This document shows positions 9,295 through 25,107 of a DNA stretch of 64,000 nt, piece after piece. The stretch spans positions 645,141 to 709,140 of the forward strand of contig OZ244852.1 in NCBI GenBank assembly GCA_965220965.1. Reading direction: 5' to 3'. Position 1 is the stretch's first letter. Each line of letters opens with the position of its first letter. This DNA comes from Candidatus Marinacidobacterium sp. (GTDB lineage Bacteria > Acidobacteriota > Vicinamibacteria > Marinacidobacterales > Marinacidobacteraceae). Made by a program: the position numbers and the translations under genes. Under the pieces are notes generated by a model, which worked only from the letters and a program-made list of their open reading frames with translations, had not been told where the DNA came from and searched no databases.

Positions 9295-10401
9295 ATGACC
9301 GATCCGCACGAATCCCGTCCTCATCCCGACGCGGTCGCATCCGCCCGCGCCGGGCTCGACAGCCACGTCCGCGACATCGTCCGCTGGCACTTCTCGGAAG
9401 ACACCGGCTGCTCCTTCTGGCTCGACTTTCGCGAGCGGCTGGACTTCGATCCGCTCACCGACATCCGGGGTTTCGACGACCTCCGGCGCTTTCCTCCCTT
9501 CGAGGACGACTGGCTCCGGGGCGGGCCGGTCCGGCGGTGGGTCCCGAAGCCCTGGCAGGACCGGCCCCTCTTCGTCTTCGAGACCGGGGGGACGACCGGC
9601 ATTCCCAAGAGCCGCGTCGGCATCACCGACTTTCGCGAGGACTACGAGCTGTTCAGCGAGCTGCTTCCCGACGAGCACTTTCCCCGCGGCTCGAACTGGC
9701 TCATGCTCGGTCCCACCGGACCGCGCCGTCTTCGGCTCTCGGTCGAACACCTCGCCCAGCACCGCGGCGGGATCGCGTTCTGCCTGGACCTCGACCCCCG
9801 CTGGGTCATCAAGCTGATCCGGAAGAACTGGCTGGAGCATCTCCAGGAGTACCAGCGCCACTGCATCGACCAGGCGCTCACGATCCTCTCGGCGGGCCAT
9901 GACATCCAGTGCCTGTTCACGACGCCCAAGCTGCTCGAGGCGCTCTGCCTGGCGCTCGAGGACCGCGGAAGCAGCCTCCGGGAGACGGGGATCCGCGGCA
10001 TCTTTTCCGGGGGCACGGAGTTCACCCCCCAGTGGACGCGGTTCGCGGTCGAGGAACTGCTCGACGGGGTCTACCTCCAGCCCACCTACGGCAACACGCT
10101 CATGGGCCTCGCGCCCGCCCGTCCCCCGACGCCGGCCGACGGCTACACGATCGCCTATTACCCGCCGATGCCACGGGCCGTGCTCGAGGTGGTCGACCCC
10201 GACAGCGGCGAGCTGGTGGACTACGGCGGGACCGGGCGCGTGCGCCTCACGACCCTGACCCGCGAGTTCTTCGTTCCCGGCTTTCTCGAGCGCGACGAGG
10301 GCGAACGCGAACGACCCTGGGGGCCCTACGCCTGGGACGGCGTCAGCGGGGTGCGCCCGTTCGGCCAGCTCCCCGGCGGCACGACCGTCGGGGTCTACTG
10401 A
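9295..10401 (+). CDS. Adenylate-forming enzyme, PaaK / CapK / F390-synthetase-like (COG1541)
   Basis: AMP-binding P-loop FVFETGGTTGIPKS and YGNTLMG motif. 13 bp downstream of the glycosyltransferase. Confidence 0.7.
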   Translation: MTDPHESRPHPDAVASARAGLDSHVRDIVRWHFSEDTGCSFWLDFRERLDFDPLTDIRGFDDLRRFPPFEDDWLRGGPVRRWVPKPWQDRPLFVFETGGTTGIPKSRVGITDFREDYELFSELLPDEHFPRGSNWLMLGPTGPRRLRLSVEHLAQHRGGIAFCLDLDPRWVIKLIRKNWLEHLQEYQRHCIDQALTILSAGHDIQCLFTTPKLLEALCLALEDRGSSLRETGIRGIFSGGTEFTPQWTRFAVEELLDGVYLQPTYGNTLMGLAPARPPTPADGYTIAYYPPMPRAVLEVVDPDSGELVDYGGTGRVRLTTLTREFFVPGFLERDEGERERPWGPYAWDGVSGVRPFGQLPGGTTVGVY

Positions 10402-14809: not shown

Positions 14810-17800
14810 ATGGCCCGGGGTTCCGCAGACGTCGTCCGGCCGGCCCTGCGGGGTCTGATCCACTACCGGCGCGGGCACCTCCTCGTCGCCGCCGCCACCG
14901 CGGTTGCGGCGGCAGTTCTCGTCGGAGCGCTCGCGGTGGGCGATTCGGTCCGGGGCAGCCTCCGCGCCGTCTTCACCGAGCGGCTGGGAGAGGCCGACTT
15001 CGCGGTCCTCCCGCGCCATCCGTTCTCCGACGATCCGGCGACCGGGCTCGCGGCGCGGTTGGCGTCGCAACTCGAGCGGGAAGCTCCCGGATGGTTCGAG
15101 TCGCCGGCGCCGGCGCTGCGGCTCATGGGCGCGGTGTTTCTCCCGGACGGAGCTCCGGAGGCCGTCACCGTGTTCGGCGTCGACGACCGATATTTCGCGC
15201 TTCACCGGGTTCCGGGGCCGGTCTCGCCGGGCGCCGTCCGGGTGAGCCCCGGGCTGGCGCTTCAGGGCATCGAGCCCGGCGACTCGCTGCTGATCCGGGT
15301 GGACGGCGTCTCCGGGATCGCCTCGGCGTCGTTCTTCGGAGACAAGGGCGCCTCCGCGCTCACGTTCCGCCGCACGGTGGAGGCCTGGGCCGAGCCCCGT
15401 CCCGGCCCCGCCTCGGGCGGGTTCTCGCTGTTCCCGGTCCAGGGACCGGTGCGAGCCGTCTTTCTGCCGCTCGGCGAGCTTCGCGCGCTCCTCGACGAGG
15501 ACTTCGGGGGGCCGCCCCGGGCCAACGCGCTCCTATTCCGGGCCGCCGGCGCGGCTGGCGCCGGGGACGAGGGAGAGGCGGTGCTGGCCGCCGCCCTCGA
15601 TGCGACCGCCTCGCTGGACGACCGCGGGCTCGGACTGCGCCGGGGCGAGTCCGGCGACCTGGTGCTGGAGAGCCGGAGCCTCGCGCTCGCCGACCACGAG
15701 GTGGACGGGGCGGTCCGCGCCGCCGAGGCCCGGGGACTTCGGGCAGCGCCGGTGCTTACCTGGCTCGCGACCTCGATGGCGGCGAACGGACGCGAGACTC
15801 CGTATTCGCTGGTGGCCGGGCTTCCCGAGGGCTGGTTCCCTCCGGACGACGACCCCGGCGATGTTCTGCTCCCCGGGCCCTGGCTCACCGAGGATCTCGA
15901 CCTAACCGGGGGCGACGCGATCGAGGTGTCCTACCTTGTTTGGGACGAGGCGGGACGGTTCGAGGCCGCCGCCGCCTCGCTGCCGGTGGGGCCGGGGGTC
16001 GCCCTCGACGGGGTGTTCCGCGATACCACCCTGGCCCCGGAGTTGCCCGGCGTCACCGACTCGGCGCGGATGGGCGACTGGGACCCGCCGTTTCCGCTGG
16101 ACCTGAGCCGGATCCGGGACCGGGACGAAGAGTACTGGGACGACTTCGGCGCGCTTCCGAAGGCGTTCGTGCCCTACGCCACCGCGCGGCGCCTCTGGGA
16201 GATGCGACAGGGGAGCGCAACATCTGTCAGGTTCCGGAGCGAGGGGAGCGCGTCTCTGGATCCCCTCCCGCTCGAAGAATCGCTCGTGGCGGAGCTTCCC
16301 GCCGCCGACTTCGGGCTCGCTCCGGTCGCGGTGCGGGCGCAGGGGCTCGAGGCCTCCCGGGGCGCGACCGACTTCGGGATCTATTTCCTCTACTTCTCGT
16401 GGTTCCTGCTGGTCTCGGCGTTCGTTCTCATCGCCCTGCTGTTCCGGCTGGGGATCGAGCGGCGGCTGCGGGAGATCGGCCTCCTGCTCGCCTGCGGCTG
16501 GCCGCCGAAGCGGGTCTCGCGGACGCTCCTCCTCGAGTCCCTGATCGTCGCCACTGTCGGCGTCGTGGTGGGTTCGGCGCTCGGCCTTCTCTATGCCCGG
16601 GGCATGGTGGGGCTTCTCTCCGGCGTGTGGGGGGGCGCGGTGACCGGGACGCTCGCCGCCTCCGACGGAGGGGCGGAGGCGCCGCTTCAGCTCTTCGTGA
16701 GCTGGGGTTCGGTCACCATGGGGGCGCTGGGCGCGCTCGAGATGGCCCTGATCGCCGCCTGGTGGACCACCCGGCGGCTCGTAAGACTCCCCCCGCGACC
16801 CCTCCTCGCCGGGAGCCTGCCGACCAGCGACGCGGCCGGCCCGCTCCCGGCGCCCGATCCCGGACGCCGCGCGCGTCGGCTGGCCGTCGGTCTCGCGGTC
16901 GTCGGCGTCGGCCTCGCGGGGGCGGCCGCGGCCGGGATCGTTCCGGAGACGGGCGGTTTCTTCGGAGCGGGGTCGGCGCTGCTCGCGGCCGGGCTCGCCG
17001 CCGGCTGGCGGCGCCTGGTGGCCGCCGGGGCCGGAGGCGCGCTCGCCGGGTTGCGGGAACTCGCTTTCCGGGCGGCCGGTTTCCGCCCGGGCCGAAGTCT
17101 CGCCGCCATGGCGCTGGTGGCCTTCGCGGCCTTCACCCTGGTCGCGGTGGAGTCGTTCCGCAAGCAGTCGGGCGCCGGTGGTCTGCCCGAAGGCGTCGGC
17201 GGGGTCCTTGCGCTCACCGAGACGGTGCTGGGGGCGCCGTGGGACCCGACGACCGCCGAGGGGCAGGAGGCGCTCAACCTGCCGGCCGGCCTCGAAGGGT
17301 TCCGGGTGAGCCCGCTTCGTCTCGCCGGCCACGAGGACGCCAGTTGTCTCAATCTCTACCGCCCGGCGCGGCCGCGGGTGCTGGGCGTCCCCCCGACGCT
17401 GCGCGAGGAGAACCGGTTCCCGTTCGCGGCGCACATGGGCGAGACCGCGGCGGAGACCGCGAATCCCTGGCGCCTCCTCGAGCGCGCGCGGGCGCCCTCG
17501 GACCCCATCCCGGTGATCGGCGACCAGAACTCGATGACGTACGTCCTCAAGTGGCCGGTCGGCGAGGAGCGTTCCTACCCCATCGGGGACGGGGGCGCTC
17601 CGGTCCGGTTGCGGCTGGTGGCGACGCTTTGGGACAGCCTCTTCCAGGGGGAGCTGCTGATGGCGGAGGAGGATCTGCTGGACTCGCTGCCGGTCGAGGA
17701 CGGCTACCGCATGTTCCTGGTGGACCGGCCCGGCGAGGTCCCGGTCGGCGCCGAGGCGCTCGCTGCGGCGGAGTCCGCAGCCACGGCGCTCCTCGCCGAT

Positions 17801-18253
17801 GCGCTCTCGGACTACGGAGCGGCCTCCACCGCCGCCCGCGCCCGGCTCGAGAGCTTCCACCAGGTGGAGAACACTTACCTCTCCACCTTCCAGGCGCTCG
17901 GCGGCCTCGGGCTCCTGCTCGGAACGCTGGGGCTCGGCGCGGTGCTCCTGCGGAACGCCGACGAGCGGAAGAAGGAGTGGGCGCTGCTCGCGGCGGCGGG
18001 CTACCGGCGGCGCGACTTCGCTTCGCTCGGTTTCTGGGAGAACGCGCTCCTCCTCCTCGCCGGCGTCGGGGTCGGCGCCGGCGCGGCCATCGTCTCGGTC
18101 CTCCCGGTGCTCGGCCAGCGGGGCGCCGGCGGGAGTCTCGGGCTCCTCGCCGTTCTCCTCTCCGGGATCGTGGCGTTCGGCCTGCTCACCGGCGCGCTCG
18201 CCGCCCGCCGCGCCGCCACCCGACCCATCCTCCCGGCGCTCCGCGCCGAGTGA
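14810..18253 (+). CDS. FtsX-like ABC transporter permease with duplicated MacB_PCD/FtsX modules (1147 aa)
   Basis: Two FtsX-type 4-TM blocks, each preceded by a large extracytoplasmic domain. Follows the ATPase by 12 nt. The alternative 1139-aa ORF in another frame is R/G-rich junk. Confidence 0.8.
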   Translation: MARGSADVVRPALRGLIHYRRGHLLVAAATAVAAAVLVGALAVGDSVRGSLRAVFTERLGEADFAVLPRHPFSDDPATGLAARLASQLEREAPGWFESPAPALRLMGAVFLPDGAPEAVTVFGVDDRYFALHRVPGPVSPGAVRVSPGLALQGIEPGDSLLIRVDGVSGIASASFFGDKGASALTFRRTVEAWAEPRPGPASGGFSLFPVQGPVRAVFLPLGELRALLDEDFGGPPRANALLFRAAGAAGAGDEGEAVLAAALDATASLDDRGLGLRRGESGDLVLESRSLALADHEVDGAVRAAEARGLRAAPVLTWLATSMAANGRETPYSLVAGLPEGWFPPDDDPGDVLLPGPWLTEDLDLTGGDAIEVSYLVWDEAGRFEAAAASLPVGPGVALDGVFRDTTLAPELPGVTDSARMGDWDPPFPLDLSRIRDRDEEYWDDFGALPKAFVPYATARRLWEMRQGSATSVRFRSEGSASLDPLPLEESLVAELPAADFGLAPVAVRAQGLEASRGATDFGIYFLYFSWFLLVSAFVLIALLFRLGIERRLREIGLLLACGWPPKRVSRTLLLESLIVATVGVVVGSALGLLYARGMVGLLSGVWGGAVTGTLAASDGGAEAPLQLFVSWGSVTMGALGALEMALIAAWWTTRRLVRLPPRPLLAGSLPTSDAAGPLPAPDPGRRARRLAVGLAVVGVGLAGAAAAGIVPETGGFFGAGSALLAAGLAAGWRRLVAAGAGGALAGLRELAFRAAGFRPGRSLAAMALVAFAAFTLVAVESFRKQSGAGGLPEGVGGVLALTETVLGAPWDPTTAEGQEALNLPAGLEGFRVSPLRLAGHEDASCLNLYRPARPRVLGVPPTLREENRFPFAAHMGETAAETANPWRLLERARAPSDPIPVIGDQNSMTYVLKWPVGEERSYPIGDGGAPVRLRLVATLWDSLFQGELLMAEEDLLDSLPVEDGYRMFLVDRPGEVPVGAEALAAAESAATALLADALSDYGAASTAARARLESFHQVENTYLSTFQALGGLGLLLGTLGLGAVLLRNADERKKEWALLAAAGYRRRDFASLGFWENALLLLAGVGVGAGAAIVSVLPVLGQRGAGGSLGLLAVLLSGIVAFGLLTGALAARRAATRPILPALRAE

Positions 18254-18292
18254 GGGCGGGACCCGGGCGTACGATTCAGCAGCGGAGCCTTC

Positions 18293-19558
18293 ATGGCATA
18301 TCCCGCGCCGTCCCGCAGCCGGTCCGAAGTGGACCGCGCGGGCGAGGTTCTGGCCGGGCCCAGGGACGAGGGGTGCGCTGCGGCGCGTCAGGTGGCCAGC
18401 GACTGGCGGGCCGCGCACGCCTACCCGCTGCTCGCGCTCCGGAAGCTTCTGGCGCGGAGGGCGCGCGAGGCCGACCCCGACGGCGACAGCCTGGTGGCGC
18501 TGCGACGTAACGGCCTGTTGGCGAAGTCCCGTGCAGCGCCGAGAGCGGTGAGGCGCCCGTCCGACAAGGCGCGTGAGCGAGGAATATCGGGAATATTCCG
18601 AGCGAAACGGAACGATGAGCGCCCCGAAGGGGCGCGGTTCGGGCGGGATGCATCGCCGCTCGAACGCCGCGTGACTTTGTCAATAGGCCGTTGAGCGACT
18701 GGTCTCGGTGGAGGCCAAGCTCCGGCGGTTCTCCGGGATGCGGCTCTCCCGGATGCAGGACCTCGGCGGCTGCCGCGCCATCCTCTCCGATGTGGGGAGC
18801 GTGGACCGGCTGGTCCGGATCTACGCGGACCGGCGGCAGAGCCACGATCTGGTCAGGAGCGACGACTACATCGCGGAACCCAAGGCCGATGGATACCGGG
18901 GCGTCCACCTGGTCTACCGCTACCGCTCGCGGAGCGACGCCGGCGCCGTCTGGAACGGCCTGCGGATCGAGGTGCAGATGCGCTCGAGGCTCCAGCACGC
19001 CTGGGCCGCCGCGGTCGAGACCGTGGATGCGATCCGGGGTACGCGGCTCAAACGGGGGGGCCGGGCAACGGCCGCTGGGACCGGTTCTTCGCGCTCATGG
19101 GCAGCGTCCTGGCGATCCGGGAGAGGAGGCCAGCGGTTCCGGGAACGCCCACCGCCCTCGCGGAACTCCGGGACGAGGCGACGACGCTCGAACGGGAGCT
19201 GGGGGTCATGTCCACGCTGCTGACGCTGGGCGTGGCGGTTCACCGCGTGGATCGGGTTGCTGGACTCATCAGGGACTTTCGCCGGGTGGCCGCCTGGTAC
19301 CTGCTGACAGTCGATTCCCGGACCGCCACGACCTCGGTCCGCGGCTATGGCGCGACGGCGTTCGAGGACGCGCGCGCCGAGTACCTTCGCCGCGAGGAAC
19401 AGCATCGGGACAGCCCCGGGATTCAGGTCTGCCTGGTCTCCACGACCTCCGCCGAGGCGCTGCGAAGGGCCTATCCCAACTACCATCTCAATTCGCAGGA
19501 CTTCCTGGGCGCGGTCGCCGAGCTGTACGAGCGGGGATCCCGGAGGGTTGGCCCGTGA
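18293..19558 (+). pseudogene. RelA/SpoT-domain protein (small alarmone synthetase-like), disrupted by a 193-bp insertion and a +1 frameshift in a G7 tract
   Basis: The N-terminal piece (18293-18506) carries the conserved SEVDRAGEVL and WRAAHAYPL motifs. Removing 18507-18699 restores the reading ...SLVALRLVSVEAKLRRFSGMRLSRMQDLGGCRAIL. The synthetase core GYRGVHLVYRY...RIEVQMRS..QHAWA lies in the 18708-19223 frame. The true continuation KRGGPGNGRWDRFFALMGSVLAIRE is in the 19097-19558 frame and requires one extra G in the GGGGGGG run at 19054-19060. Confidence 0.7.
18507..18694. mobile_element. MITE-like 188-bp non-autonomous insertion with 14-bp imperfect terminal inverted repeats and a 5-bp target-site duplication (GCGAC)
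   Basis: Direct repeat GCGAC at 18502-18506 and 18695-18699. Ends GTAACGGCCTGTTG and its inverse TCAACGGCCTATTG match at 11 of 14 positions. Internal palindrome GGAATATTCC. Local GC is clearly below the 70% background. Excising the insert plus one repeat copy (193 bp, 1 mod 3) restores the host ORF in frame. Confidence 0.55.
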
Positions 19559-19616
19559 ACATCGCCCGCGGTCCCGTCGTTTCGTCGGGCGTACCAGGCA
19601 TGCCGGAGGCGCGACC

Positions 19617-19898
19617 GTGAAGAGCAGGACTACGTACGAGCTGGACGCCAGGTCTGTCCGCGTGCTGAAGCGGCTCGCGCGCCGCTGGGGCGTTTCGGAG
19701 TCGGAGGCGCTTGGCCGGGCGATCCGCAGCGAGGGCTGCCGGCAGATGCGGAACGAGGACGCCATTGCCGCACTTCAGGAGCTGCAGGCCTCGCTCCGGA
19801 GGAAGGGGGTCGACGTCGCCCGGTGGGAGCGCGAGGCGCGCGAGGAGCGGCGCGCCTCTTGGGGCCCCGGCCGAGCGTCGCCGGGGCCTCCTACGTAA
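19617..19898 (+). CDS. Ribbon-helix-helix (CopG/antitoxin-like) small DNA-binding protein
   Basis: GTG start with GGAGG 8 nt upstream. N-terminal motif TYELDARSVRVLKRLARRWGVSESEALGRAI (beta strand plus two helices of an RHH fold). 93 aa. Begins 58 nt after the RelA/SpoT pseudogene. Confidence 0.5.
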   Translation: MKSRTTYELDARSVRVLKRLARRWGVSESEALGRAIRSEGCRQMRNEDAIAALQELQASLRRKGVDVARWEREAREERRASWGPGRASPGPPT

Positions 19899-19907
19899 AC
19901 GGCTCCG

Positions 19908-21107
19908 CTACTCGGGAAAGACGCTCTTCGGGATGTAGCCGGTGACGACCTGGGTGAGGTCCACGACCTCGCTCACCCGGAAGTCCACCGCGATGCTCGT
20001 GAGCGAGAGCGCCTCGGCGGGGGAGTGACCCTTCTCCTCGACGAGGAACTCCACGACTCCCCGGGTGGCCTTGACCGCCGCCCGGTCCAGATCGAGGTCG
20101 ATCCCCATGATCATGATGTGGTCGGCGTCCTCCGCGCGCGGCGCGGTGAGGGTGCGGCCCTTGTGGACCGCGAACCGGAACACCATGGACAGCGACTGCT
20201 CGATGGCGGTGCCGCTCACCTCGCCGTCACCCTGCGCGCCGTGGGGGTCCCCGGCGTAGAACAGAGCTCCCGGGTGGAAGACCGGCAGGTAGAGCGTCGT
20301 TCCCGCTTTCAGGTCCTTCACGTCGAGGTTGCCGCCGAAGAGGCCGGGAGGGCGGGAGCCCTGGACCCCGGGGACGGTCACTCCCGGTTCCCCGAGCACC
20401 GGATCGGGCGCGACCGCCAGGATGCCGGGGAAGGGCGCCAGCGGGACCTCGACGCCGTGCGGCAGGAAGGCGACCTCGCGCCCGCCGGAGAAGCCGGTCC
20501 GGATCAGATGCCGGGTTCCCGGCGGGATGTCGAACGCGGGATCTCCCGGCCGAAAGCCCGGATAGCTCTCCGAAAACACCCCGCCCCGCGCCGAGGTGTT
20601 GTTGATGCCCCAGGGAACGCGGGTCGTCACCTCGAGGATCCGGATCTCGAGAACATCTCCGGGCTCGGCGCCCTCGATATGGATCGGGCCGGTGATCACG
20701 TGGCCGCTCCGCCCCTCGCGCGGGCGATCCCCCCGGGACGCCCAGAAGTCGAGCACGTCCTGGGGGATCTCCTCGCGGGGAACGCCGAGGCCGGTGAGCC
20801 AGGCGACCGGTTCTTCGTCCTGAACTGCGCCGGCGTGGGTCAGGGTGTCCACCCGGACGGTCGCGCCGGGCTCGACCCGGAGCACCGGCTCGCGATCCGT
20901 CGGGAACCAGCCCCAGACGACGTTGTCCGGAGTCGAGGGGACGAAGTGATCCGCTTCGATGGGCGACTCGGCCGGAGGCGCCGCACTCCCGGCCTCCGCT
21001 TCGGTTCCCGGATCCGGCGCCGCACAACCGGCGAGGGCGACCAGGCATCCGGCAAGCCAGGCGGCCGCCGGGTGAAGCGATGTCCGGAATGTCAGGCGGC
21101 GTCCCAC
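19908..21107 (-). CDS. Acetamidase/formamidase (FmdA_AmdA) family protein, lipoprotein
   Basis: Lipobox LAGCAAP. FmdA/AmdA family similarity across about 400 aa (GNLDVKDLKAGTTLYLPV region). Confidence 0.8.
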   Translation of the reverse strand: MGRRLTFRTSLHPAAAWLAGCLVALAGCAAPDPGTEAEAGSAAPPAESPIEADHFVPSTPDNVVWGWFPTDREPVLRVEPGATVRVDTLTHAGAVQDEEPVAWLTGLGVPREEIPQDVLDFWASRGDRPREGRSGHVITGPIHIEGAEPGDVLEIRILEVTTRVPWGINNTSARGGVFSESYPGFRPGDPAFDIPPGTRHLIRTGFSGGREVAFLPHGVEVPLAPFPGILAVAPDPVLGEPGVTVPGVQGSRPPGLFGGNLDVKDLKAGTTLYLPVFHPGALFYAGDPHGAQGDGEVSGTAIEQSLSMVFRFAVHKGRTLTAPRAEDADHIMIMGIDLDLDRAAVKATRGVVEFLVEEKGHSPAEALSLTSIAVDFRVSEVVDLTQVVTGYIPKSVFPE

Positions 21108-22926: not shown

Positions 22927-25107
22927 ATGCCGCTCCTCGCGTCCCTCCTTCTGTTTGTCCTTTCCGTCCTCCTCGCCGTCCCGGCGGTCGCGCAGGACGC
23001 CGATCCGCCGCGCGGCTTCCTGCCCGGCCAGTGGGAGGAACAGCGCGCGATCGAGGAGCGGTTCCGGGCGGTTCCGGACCCGGCCCGGCTGCGCGAGTAC
23101 ATGGAGTACATGGCGGGCGAGCCCCACATCGCCGGCTTCGGGGGCGGCAGCCTCCGGGTGGCGGAATACGCCCTCGAGAAGTTCCGGTCCTTCGGGCTGG
23201 AGGCCGAGATCGAGGAGACCGAGGCGCTCATGCCGCTGCCGACCGAACGCTTCGTCGAGGTCGTCGGCCCCGAGCCCTACACACTCCGGCTCGAGGAGCT
23301 GGCCGTCGCGGAAGACCCGGACACTTCCGACGACGGGCTGCTGCCCACCTTCAACCCCTACGCCGCCGACGGTGACGTCCGGGGCGAAGTCGTCTTTGTG
23401 AACTACGGCATCCCCGAGGATTACGAGATGCTCGCCGAACTCGGCATTTCCGTCGAGGGGAAGATCGTCCTGGCCCGTTACGGCCGGAGCTGGCGCGGGA
23501 TCAAGGCCAAGCTGGCGCAGGAAAACGGCGCCGTTGGCGCGCTCATGTACTCGGATCCGGAGGAGGACGGCTACTACCAGGGCCTGACCTATCCCGAAGG
23601 GCCCTACCGTCCGGAGTGGGGCGTCCAGCGCGGCTCCATCCTGGACATGCCGGTTCACCCCGGAGATCCGCTGACGCCCGGCTGGGGGGCCACCGAGGAT
23701 CGCGAGAAGCTGACCCGGGAGACGGCGCGGACCCTCGTCCGGATTCCGGTGCTCCCGATCTCCTGGGGAGACGCGCTTCCGATCCTGAAGCAGCTCCGGG
23801 GGACGCCGGCGCCGAACGACGACTGGAAGGGGGCGCTCCCGATCACCTACCACATCGGTCCGGGACCGGCCGAAGTCAGGATGCGCACCGCCTACGACTG
23901 GCGGGTGCGGCCGATCTACAACGTCGTGGCGCGGATCGAGGGCTCCCACGAGCCCGACCAGTGGATCGTCCACGGGAACCACCACGACGCGTGGTGCAAC
24001 GGGGCGACGGACCCGATCAGCGGGGCGGTCCAGCTCATGGAGACCGCGCGCGGGTTCGGCGAACTCCTTCGCGCCGGGATCCGGCCGCGGCGGACGGTGA
24101 TCTTCGCGCTCTGGGACGCCGAGGAATGGGGTCTGCTGGGCTCCACCGAATGGGCCGAGACCCACCGCGAGGATCTCGGTGAGAACGGAGTCGTCTACAT
24201 CAACACCGACAGCACCGGGAAGGGCTGGCTCAGCATGGCGGGCAGCCACACCCTGCAGCGGTTCCTGAACGAGGTCGCCCGGGACATCGAGGATCCCGAG
24301 CGCGGCGTCAGCGTGTTCGAGGCCGCGCGGGCGCGGCGGCTGGAGACCGCGGCGAACCCCGATCTCCGGCGCGAGATCGAGCAGAGCGACGACCTCCGGC
24401 TGGCGGCCCTCGGCTCGGGCTCCGACTACACCGTCTTCATCGACCACCTCACCATGGCCTCGCTGAACCTCGGGTTCGGCGGCGACAGTCCGGGCGGGGT
24501 CTATCACTCGAACTACGACACCTTCCACTGGTACAACGAGTTCTCGGACAGCGACTTCGTGTTCGGTCGCGCCCTGTCGCAGCTCACCGGCACCGCGATC
24601 CTGCGCCTCGCGAACGCGGCGATCCTCCCCTTCGGCTTCACCGATCTGGCGGACGCGATGCGGGACTATGTCGGAGAGATCCGCGAGACGCACGCGGCGA
24701 TGGACACCTCGGAGGAGATCGACTTCGCCGCCCTGGAGGGCGCCCTCGATGCGCTCGACGAAGCCGGCGAGGGGTATGAGGGCGCCCTCGCGCGCCTCGG
24801 GGACGCTTCGGTGGAGGCGACGCTCGCCAACCCGGAGGCTTCGCGGCTGAACCGGCTCCTCTACACGACCGAGCGTCGGCTCGGCTCCGAGGAGGGGCTG
24901 CCCCAGCGGGAGTGGTTCCGCCACCAGGTCTACGCCCCCGGCTTCTACACCGGCTACGGCGTGAAGACGATCCCGGGCGTCCGCGAGGGGATCGAGGAAG
25001 AGGAGTGGGAGGCGGCGCGCTTCTATGTCCGCGTCGTGAGCGACGCCCTCGCCGCGCTCACCGGTCAGGTGCGCGAGGCCGAGCGGATCCTGGGCGAACT
25101 CCGCTAG
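22927..25107 (+). CDS. M28 peptidase of the transferrin-receptor / glutamate carboxypeptidase II-like (PA-M28-TfR dimerisation) type, secreted
   Basis: Signal peptide. M28 motifs (HHDAWCNGATDPISG, DAEEWGLLGSTEW, YHSNYDTFHW). C-terminal TfR-like dimerisation domain. 726 aa. Confidence 0.85.
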   Translation: MPLLASLLLFVLSVLLAVPAVAQDADPPRGFLPGQWEEQRAIEERFRAVPDPARLREYMEYMAGEPHIAGFGGGSLRVAEYALEKFRSFGLEAEIEETEALMPLPTERFVEVVGPEPYTLRLEELAVAEDPDTSDDGLLPTFNPYAADGDVRGEVVFVNYGIPEDYEMLAELGISVEGKIVLARYGRSWRGIKAKLAQENGAVGALMYSDPEEDGYYQGLTYPEGPYRPEWGVQRGSILDMPVHPGDPLTPGWGATEDREKLTRETARTLVRIPVLPISWGDALPILKQLRGTPAPNDDWKGALPITYHIGPGPAEVRMRTAYDWRVRPIYNVVARIEGSHEPDQWIVHGNHHDAWCNGATDPISGAVQLMETARGFGELLRAGIRPRRTVIFALWDAEEWGLLGSTEWAETHREDLGENGVVYINTDSTGKGWLSMAGSHTLQRFLNEVARDIEDPERGVSVFEAARARRLETAANPDLRREIEQSDDLRLAALGSGSDYTVFIDHLTMASLNLGFGGDSPGGVYHSNYDTFHWYNEFSDSDFVFGRALSQLTGTAILRLANAAILPFGFTDLADAMRDYVGEIRETHAAMDTSEEIDFAALEGALDALDEAGEGYEGALARLGDASVEATLANPEASRLNRLLYTTERRLGSEEGLPQREWFRHQVYAPGFYTGYGVKTIPGVREGIEEEEWEAARFYVRVVSDALAALTGQVREAERILGELR

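Follow-up and report, generated by a model that had tools for sequence, protein, structure and literature searches.

The window, a stretch of 64,000 nucleotides from a Candidatus Marinacidobacterium species, contains a variable island set between two genes that lie outside the module itself. On the left is an FtsX-domain ABC permease of 1147 amino acids (14810 to 18253, forward strand), which is syntenic in loci L001, L002, L004, L006 and L009, and on the right is a gene for an FmdA/AmdA-family amidase (about 19908 to 21107, reverse strand), which is 83%–86% identical in relatives. Between them, on the forward strand, lies a pseudogene resembling CapRelSJ46, the fused toxSAS antiphage protein of Salmonella prophage SJ46 (PDB 7ZTB and 9ERV; Zhang et al., Nature 2022, PMC9712102). 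It is divided into a 5′ segment (18293 to 18509; codons 1–72 and the first base of codon 73) and a 3′ segment (18694 to 19558; the remainder of codon 73 through to the stop) by a non-coding MITE of 182 bp (18510 to 18691). The 3′ segment carries a homopolymer tract, AAA-C-GGGGGGG (19050 to 19060), where the window sequence falls out of frame, and it is followed by a gene for a 93 amino acid VapB-type ribbon-helix-helix (RHH) protein (19617 to 19898, forward strand), which has no PIN/VapC partner.

Open reading frame calls on the window give three pieces on the forward strand, 18293–18694, 18708–19223 and 19097–19558, which had been read in the initial annotation as the collinear remains of one RelA/SpoT-domain protein of about 375 amino acids. 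This reading is borne out, although the repaired pieces join into a protein of 360 amino acids. Residues 73–175 match Pfam PF04607 (E 5.6e-11), the profile against which the annotation had proposed to run the rebuilt sequence, and intact homologues of about 350 amino acids span 95% of it. The 5′ segment holds the N-terminal helices together with A69 and R71 of the ATP-binding R-x-K motif and aligns with CapRelSJ46 residues 16–80, with R71 corresponding to R79. The 3′ segment supplies R100 (in GGCRA), the G-loop tyrosine Y140 (18894–18896), the core of the toxSYNTH domain, the linker helices, a region equivalent to the pseudo-zinc-finger domain (pseudo-ZFD) and a YPNY lock motif (19472–19483). 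A scan of 18150–20000 found neither a sigma-70 promoter nor an intrinsic terminator.

In both assemblies of the strain the MITE interrupts the codon for Lys73, the invariant lysine of the R-x-K motif, and the copy in the window is a pseudogene. The element has 23-nt imperfect terminal inverted repeats (18509–18531 and 18670–18692; ACGGCCTGTTGGCGAAGTC... and ...GACTTTGTCAATAGGCCGT), folds as a single long imperfect hairpin (−109 kcal/mol, z −7.9) and belongs to a repeat family that we found in 35 metagenome contigs and one Vicinamibacterales genome (L081), with many of the copies at contig ends; there are no further copies within the window. Alignment of the family and the flanks of its other copies point to a 2-bp duplication at the target site, with TA at 18508–18509 on the left and TG, one transition from TA, at 18692–18693 on the right. 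Elsewhere in the family the flanks are TA/TA (n = 5), TG/TG (n = 3), CA/CA (n = 2; L103 and L111, identical in ends and flanks and maybe one locus sampled twice) and TG/CA (n = 1), which together with the TA/TG of the window would fit direct duplication of 2 bp with a preference for TA. In its size of about 180 bp, lack of coding sequence, terminal inverted repeats, whole-element hairpin and many copies it resembles the TA-duplicating MITEs of IS630/Tc1-mariner type, although that superfamily would be assigned from the duplication alone and some copies have TG or CA flanks. The only Rfam match between 18200 and 20000 is at chance level (E 0.97), and the insert does not correspond to any RNA family or intron already described.

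Excising 18510–18693, with the TA kept, restores AAG and with it the invariant Lys73. An earlier model, in which 193 bp (18507–18699) were removed and GCGAC was a 5-bp duplication, leaves a gap of three residues in the invariant R-x-K motif and was rejected. The proposed knock-out by a mobile element holds, on the evidence of the terminal repeats, the hairpin and the repeat family, while the limits first given to the insert do not. The insertion appears to be recent, because the rest of the gene sequence is still nearly perfect.

The frame break is less secure. L083, an independent assembly of this strain, is 99.985% identical to the window across 20.3 kb, and the two differ at three positions, each of them a homopolymer indel. 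Where the window has AAA (19050–19052) L083 has AAAA, which keeps the gene in frame (K192-T-G-G-P-G-N-G-R-W-D), and the gene called there is uninterrupted over 283 amino acids. We have therefore replaced the earlier repair, one G added to the G7 run, with the AAAA that is read in L083. Homopolymer indels are the usual type of error in long reads. The coverage of L083 is 3.64x and its other two differences from the window are errors; an exact-sequence look-up of the open reading frame pieces found no third independent assembly. The break probably reflects either an error of assembly or variation within the population, and the initial description of the gene as inactivated twice stands for the MITE lesion, while the homopolymer frameshift, which falls at the A-run beside G7, is unproven and discordant between the assemblies.

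Several lines of comparison place the rebuilt protein beside CapRelSJ46. It matches the PADLOC-DB v2 model PDC-S33 from end to end (E 3.8e-96; protein residues 1–348 on model positions 1–342 of 349), PDC-S33 being itself a candidate label, for a single gene, and a literature search on that name found no paper mentioning it. Using phmmer against solved structures, 7ZTB and 9ERV are matched at E 1.5e-41, with residues 9–343 falling onto residues 16–362 of 7ZTB, and a profile built from 35 homologues aligns with the CapRel structure over its whole length (E 3.6e-77). The fold, for which the initial annotation had called for remote-homology and structure prediction, was examined on an intact orthologue, P0013, which is 56% identical to the window protein and has an AlphaFold model with a pLDDT of 90.2. 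Its top fold match in the PDB is 7ZTB, deposited as ‘Salmonella tRNA pyrophosphokinase CapRel’ (359 columns, TM 0.68/0.71), and the remaining matches have TMq values of at most 0.42. The C-terminal region of the model has strands at 271–277, 282–288 and 313–319, a helix at 290–309 and then terminal helices, an arrangement that fits a pseudo-ZFD with its three-stranded antiparallel sheet, helix between two strands and C-terminal helical extension.

Sequence identity to CapRelSJ46 is 27%–28%, and the residues named as functional in that protein (PMC9712102) are kept. A69/R71/K73 correspond to A77/R79/K81, R100 to R116 and the G-loop Y140 to Y155, with R71, R100 and Y140 invariant across 63 sequences, and Y333-P-N-Y336 corresponds to the YXXY motif Y352-P-N-Y355 and is at least 90% conserved among the family. 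Conservation is lowest in the region equivalent to the pseudo-ZFD (0.41, compared with 0.66 in the catalytic core), and a variable pseudo-ZFD has likewise been reported for CapRels (PMC9712102). The two proteins also share a single polypeptide of about 360–373 amino acids, the order toxSYNTH, linker helices, pseudo-ZFD and C-terminal anchor, and the lack of a conserved partner gene. They differ in that the window copy is a pseudogene and in that its host is an uncultured Vicinamibacteria-like acidobacterium, whereas CapRelSJ46 comes from an enterobacterial prophage. From sequence, the rebuilt protein is homologous over its full length to CapRelSJ46, a fused toxin-antitoxin tRNA pyrophosphokinase, and the label CapRel-type, resting on homology of sequence and fold, would cover either the named CapRel subfamily or a sister toxSAS clade. 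The suggestion that this was a toxSAS-type protein of the toxin-antitoxin or antiphage kind is thus supported, by the full-length match and by PDC-S33.

By homology to CapRelSJ46, the intact protein would have worked as a single polypeptide of about 360 amino acids. Its N-terminal toxSYNTH domain would transfer pyrophosphate from ATP onto the 3′ ends of tRNAs and so halt translation, while the C-terminal pseudo-ZFD, with its YXXY motif, would dock at the ATP site and hold the enzyme off until a phage protein bound this domain and lifted the block. By analogy, then, the C-terminal region of about 150 amino acids is taken to be a built-in antitoxin and sensor, and both the substrate of this Acidobacteriota-centred clade, tRNA rather than the synthesis of (pp)pApp, and its trigger are inferred from the same comparison. 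The MITE, with its 2-bp TA-type duplication, split this gene on entering the Lys73 codon.

The RHH gene has a different history. It lies 58 bp downstream of the CapRel-like gene on the same strand, its GTG start is 7 nt rather than the reported 8 nt from GGAGG, and 8 bases (19899–19906) separate its stop codon from that of the convergent amidase gene. The reading frame itself is as first described, and its RHH identity comes by way of an orthologue, as its own scores fall below the Pfam thresholds (RHH_1 E 0.064; the Rv0623-like family, E 0.037, a weak match). This orthologue, in L002 and L006, which are apparently the same genome or close relatives, is 50% identical (E 6e-27) and passes RHH_1 at E 3.4e-07. 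A search of 5.8 billion proteins for homologues of the RHH protein returned, besides itself, only that protein in the two relatives. In L002 and L006 the RHH gene shares 4 bp with a PIN (VapC) gene (PIN E 8.9e-12), in the manner of VapBC systems with an RHH-type VapB and a PIN VapC, such as the Rv0623/VapB30 family, whereas in the window no PIN gene adjoins it and only the antitoxin is left. In L009 a vapC tail is still found at the same place; a DNA alignment for the vapC deletion gave ambiguous end-points. Because the RHH gene at the orthologous locus overlaps a PIN gene that is absent from the window, the window gene is, on this one orthologous lineage and the L009 remnant, judged to be the orphan VapB of a separate vapBC pair, the half that would have been left behind when the PIN toxin gene was deleted in this strain.

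Comparison with relatives suggests that, among related Vicinamibacteria, toxin-antitoxin genes, defence genes and insertion sequences come and go in the island between the FtsX and FmdA genes. Some of these bacteria have the CapRel-type gene intact, L001 and L004 carry it without any RHH gene, and in the close relative L009 it is dead, with a TAA at the G-loop tyrosine codon and a deletion. Across 80 loci analysed no neighbour family is conserved beside the CapRel-like gene, transposases apart; an IS1595-family transposase adjoins it in 18 of the 80, and we found no paper linking IS1595 with toxSAS or RelA/SpoT proteins.

Taken together, we propose that the locus holds a recently inactivated CapRel-type fused antiphage gene and a separate orphan VapB, which are neighbours in a variable island, and we put the probability of this reading at about 0.8. 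The initial annotation had instead seen a two-gene toxSAS module, in which a toxin was knocked out twice under selection while its downstream RHH antitoxin survived. The adjacency of the two genes and their order, which recurs in L002 and L006, speak for it, and two-gene toxSAS systems do exist (PMC9712102, PMC11782079). In the bicistronic pairs FaRel2-ATfaRel2, PhRel-ATphRel and unfused CapRel-ATcapRel the toxin domains are homologous to the one here and neutralisation is likewise by a YXXY-bearing pZFD, but those systems have the pZFD as a small protein of its own, whereas here it is part of the toxin polypeptide and the adjacent small gene codes for an unrelated RHH protein; PADLOC, too, files the family as single-gene. 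Among 82 loci fetched from elsewhere an RHH gene follows the CapRel-like gene in L002 and L006 alone, apparently one lineage, where it belongs to a different operon by virtue of its overlap with the PIN gene, an outcome that the initial annotation had itself named as counting against its model. PMC11782079 describes toxSAS neutralisers of the pZFD/YXXY, Tis1-like, PAD1/PanA and SAH types and makes no mention of RHH proteins; the neighbour in the window is of none of these types, and direct reading of its sequence shows no YXXY motif. With an antitoxin domain already present in the CapRel-like protein, and with the gene occurring free of any RHH in L001 and L004, we consider a two-gene module very improbable. 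Nor is selection against an active toxin needed to account for the knock-out, since a fused CapRel would be self-inhibited; ordinary turnover of defence genes may suffice.

That the gene was instead a housekeeping small alarmone synthetase, making (p)ppGpp in the manner of RelQ, RelP or Rv1366-like proteins, is at least as improbable. The Pfam RelA_SpoT match and a weak match to the NCBIfam YjbM GTP diphosphokinase model (NF053588) would agree with it, but the latter reaches 33 bits where the cut-off is 320. RelQ, RelP and YjbM are single-domain proteins of about 200–230 amino acids, and in the phmmer, profile and fold searches the housekeeping structures align solely with the core, residues ~54–179, whereas CapRel covers the whole length. 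The patchy occurrence of the family across phyla, its place in a variable island and the frequent transposase neighbours also argue against a housekeeping role. A more serious alternative, though still one we think unlikely, is that both lesions are real and fixed and that the pseudogene is older than we propose. The window comes from a 2.88-Mb contig that is correct at both other sites where the 3.64x assembly errs, and by those two sites it is the better assembly. Against this, the one extra A in L083 gives the exact family-consensus reading GTRLKTGGPGNGRWDRFF and falls inside the stretch of about 20 nt within which the frame must switch, with a chance that we estimate at ~0.003 from three differences per 20 kb; moreover, the assemblies differ by nothing but homopolymer indels, and no other decay is visible, the repaired protein retaining 81 of the 83 columns conserved at 90% or more. 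Lastly, we give very little weight to the idea that the knock-out is a reversible switch at the level of the population and not simple decay. The ends of the MITE are intact and its TA duplication almost so, such that excision could bring Lys73 back, and the nearby A/G homopolymer reads differently in two assemblies of one strain; if the idea were true, the population would be mixed, with a costly abortive-infection toxin on in some members and off in others.

We conclude that the locus shows ordinary defence-island decay of a known family and not a new two-gene system. The main value of the analysis is as a correction, in that a RelA/SpoT gene with a small RHH neighbour resembles a two-gene toxSAS, yet the antitoxin is built in and the neighbour comes from another system. 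It also connects PDC-S33, a candidate in PADLOC, with the CapRel family, which has been characterised experimentally, and shows that this family is common among soil phyla, Acidobacteriota and Chloroflexota included. Within one syntenic island, intact copies, a copy split by a MITE and a copy with a nonsense codon and a deletion together offer a clean instance in nature of how defence genes turn over.

We conclude that the CapRel-like gene at 18293-19558 is a pseudogene and adds a new member to a known family, and that a putative orphan antitoxin lies beside it. The initial annotation had joined three collinear plus-strand ORF pieces (18293-18694, 18708-19223 and 19097-19558) into one RelA/SpoT-domain protein, and this was essentially right, as the rebuilt 360-amino acid protein (insert removed and one base corrected) matches Pfam RelA_SpoT at residues 73-175 (E 5.6e-11) and, across 95% of its length, over 1,700 intact proteins ~350 amino acids long, the nearest being 54-59% identical. 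PADLOC PDC-S33, a single-gene defence candidate, matches it end to end (E 3.8e-96). By far the best matches among solved structures are 7ZTB ('Salmonella tRNA pyrophosphokinase CapRel') and 9ERV (CapRel in complex with the phage protein Bas11 Gp54), with E 1.5e-41 for residues 9-343 against 16-362, and the family profile searched against solved structures gives E 3.6e-77; the housekeeping synthetases YjbM/RelQ and RelP align with residues ~54-179 only.

Using the intact orthologue P0013 (56% identical) in place of the repaired window protein, a confident structural model was obtained (pLDDT 90.2), in which the synthetase core is followed by linker helices, three β-strands, the last two of them separated by a helix, and then terminal helices, the same topology as the pseudo-ZFD of the fused toxSAS antiphage protein CapRelSJ46 (PMC9712102). 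The top Foldseek match is 7ZTB (359 aligned columns, TM 0.68/0.71), all others being confined to the core, and the high rmsd to 7ZTB may be consistent with a closed model being compared with an open crystal form. The residues of CapRelSJ46 to which the CapRel paper (PMC9712102) draws attention are conserved in the window protein: A77, R79 and K81 as A69, R71 and K73, R116 as R100, the G-loop Y155 as Y140, and the YXXY lock as Y333-P-N-Y336. Mean column identity is lowest, at 0.41, in the pseudo-ZFD-equivalent stretch (core 0.66, YPNY anchor 0.69), and the pseudo-ZFD is likewise reported as the least conserved part of CapRels (PMC9712102). The CapRel match, the pseudo-ZFD topology and the conserved lock together argue that the ~150-amino acid C-terminal region would be a built-in antitoxin and sensor, with a separate antitoxin not required. 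By analogy with CapRelSJ46, the intact protein would pyrophosphorylate tRNA and would be autoinhibited by its own C-terminal domain until a phage protein frees the enzyme.

The proposal that the toxSAS gene is paired with the putative 93-amino acid ribbon-helix-helix (RHH) protein encoded downstream (19617-19898) did not hold. A genome-collection scan with the CapRel-like protein gave 539 relatives and 80 loci, the nearest belonging to Vicinamibacteria MAGs and others to Proteobacteria, Chloroflexota, Actinomycetota, Bacteroidota, Nitrospira and other groups; a CapRel ORF could be called in 80 of the 82 fetched loci (L001-L082; exceptions L009 and L013). Clustering of all ORFs lying up to 1.5 kb from CapRel in these 80 loci returned no conserved partner, and when all 82 were searched directly, L002 and L006 alone had an RHH homologue; the two seem to be one genome or close relatives. 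In both, the gene for this homologue (105 amino acids; Pfam RHH_1, E 3.4e-07) shares 4 bp with a 131-amino acid PIN-domain gene (E 8.9e-12), forming a canonical vapBC pair. The window RHH protein is 50% identical to this VapB (E 6e-27), no PIN gene (vapC) lies next to it, and eight bases (19899-19906) separate its stop codon from the convergent FmdA stop codon. Toxins of the toxSAS type are known to be neutralised by pZFD/YXXY, Tis1-like or PAD1 domains, and RHH is not mentioned in a review of these mechanisms (PMC11782079). We infer that the putative orphan VapB is a remnant, or has been kept as an anti-addiction or regulatory protein.

The locus in relatives points to a variable toxin-antitoxin/defence islet, bordered on the left by an FtsX permease and on the right by an FmdA amidase and M28 peptidase; these flanks are 75-86% identical in L001, L002, L006 and L009, and L004, which contains CapRel alone, retains the left flank only. 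L002 and L006 carry a short-chain dehydrogenase, a PhdYeFM antitoxin, DUF488, CapRel, vapB and vapC. L001 carries a PIN/PhdYeFM pair, FmdA fragments and CapRel; that the fragments are duplicated upstream of CapRel, with an IS110-family transposase after it (L001 4360-4945 and 6383-7654 for these features together), suggests rearrangement of the islet through insertion at the FmdA 3′ end. The CapRel copy of the closest relative (L009 6001-6830, 64% identical) has decayed independently: its catalytic G-loop tyrosine codon is now TAA, Arg stands in place of the Trp that is otherwise invariant in the WR..H motif, and a deletion fuses residue ~231 to the last ~45 codons of vapC, so the gene has apparently been lost independently at least twice. 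CapRel is 56-64% identical to its relatives against 75-86% for the flanking housekeeping proteins (18293-19558 versus 14810-18253), in keeping with the defence gene having evolved faster or been replaced.

The lesion in the window is a MITE-like insert at 18510-18691, flanked by TA (18508-18509) and TG (18692-18693), whose arms (18509-18531 and 18670-18692) form a 23-nt imperfect inverted repeat and which is predicted to fold as a single long hairpin (-109 kcal/mol, z -7.9). The 193-bp excision first suggested (18507-18699, at a 5-bp GCGAC repeat) leaves a three-residue gap in the family motif LVAQRLKRLxSxEAKL and was rejected. Excising 18510-18693 yields ALRRKRLVSVEAKL, which aligns to the family without a gap and restores a lysine invariant among 62 homologues, therefore placing the MITE inside codon 73, the K of the ATP-binding motif R-x-K-x3-S-x3-K that corresponds to R79/K81 of CapRelSJ46. 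An Rfam scan matched no family to the insert or its relatives. In L081, a Vicinamibacterales genome, a copy with 69% identity occupies a stretch between ORFs (9960-10097), and an exact search found the 23-nt conserved core in 35 metagenome contigs (L084-L118), many matches being at contig ends. Aligned copies share ends of approximately GCAGCCCGTGGTGAA and, across the window copy, L081 and L084-L118, a strongly conserved internal core, e.g., GGCGGGATGCATCGCCGCTCGAA and CCGAGAGCGG..GAGGCGCCCG.C.GACAAGGCGCG; hairpin tips bear lineage-specific insertions and the ends covary. The flanking dinucleotides (TA/TA in five copies, TG/TG in three, TG/CA in one, and CA/CA in two, L103 and L111, whose ends and flanks do not differ and which may represent a single locus sampled twice) follow a pattern of direct, not inverted, duplications.

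The homopolymer frameshift was taken at first for a second inactivation. L083, an independently assembled 79-kb contig of the same strain from another sample ('3.64x') that also encodes the window's RHH protein, is 99.985% identical over 20,282 bp, differing at three positions only, each a single-base homopolymer indel. Extra Gs in L083 at window 23683 and 24057 (L083 14066 and 14441) split a 726-amino acid PA/M28/TFR-dimer protease gene whose window copy (22927-25107) is intact, and are errors of low-coverage L083; they illustrate homopolymer errors in such long-read metagenome assemblies. At the third, AAA in the window (19050-19052, immediately 5′ of the G7 run) is AAAA in L083, where the gene caller predicts pieces 2 and 3 as one 283-amino acid ORF with the junction GTRLKTGGPGNGRWDRFF, matching the family consensus. 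Since a chance error falling in the ~20-nt frame-restoring stretch has, by our estimate, a probability of ~0.003, the frameshift seems more likely to be a mistake of the window assembly, or else a genuine polymorphism, than a fixed second lesion; a search for a third assembly covering the site found none. The 283-amino acid ORF lacks residues 1 to ~77, including R71 and K73, and the split gene is probably non-functional. Its knock-out is recent, because the repaired protein retains 81 of 83 columns conserved at ≥90% in the alignment of 62 homologues, more than many intact members.

Elsewhere, an IS1595-family transposase lies near the CapRel-like gene in 18 of 80 loci from at least five phyla (L011, L027, L031, L032, L053, L055, L071, L078 and 10 further), mostly at 40-350 bp, with distances reaching 1.8 kb for L031 and L032; that of L011 matches DDE_Tnp_IS1595 (E 1.5e-34) and Zn_ribbon_IS1595 (E 4.9e-12). 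At least seven loci have both genes enclosed by terminal inverted repeats of 17-31 nt (e.g., L031 5855-5885/9038-9068 and L071 5915-5940/8212-8237), most including an ACTTGAC-like core, approximately AATATACTTGACyC. A literature search found no paper linking IS1595 with a CapRel-like gene. From the adjoining transposase and the repeats enclosing both genes, this CapRel-type defence gene seems to be carried along by IS1595-type transposons as a passenger.
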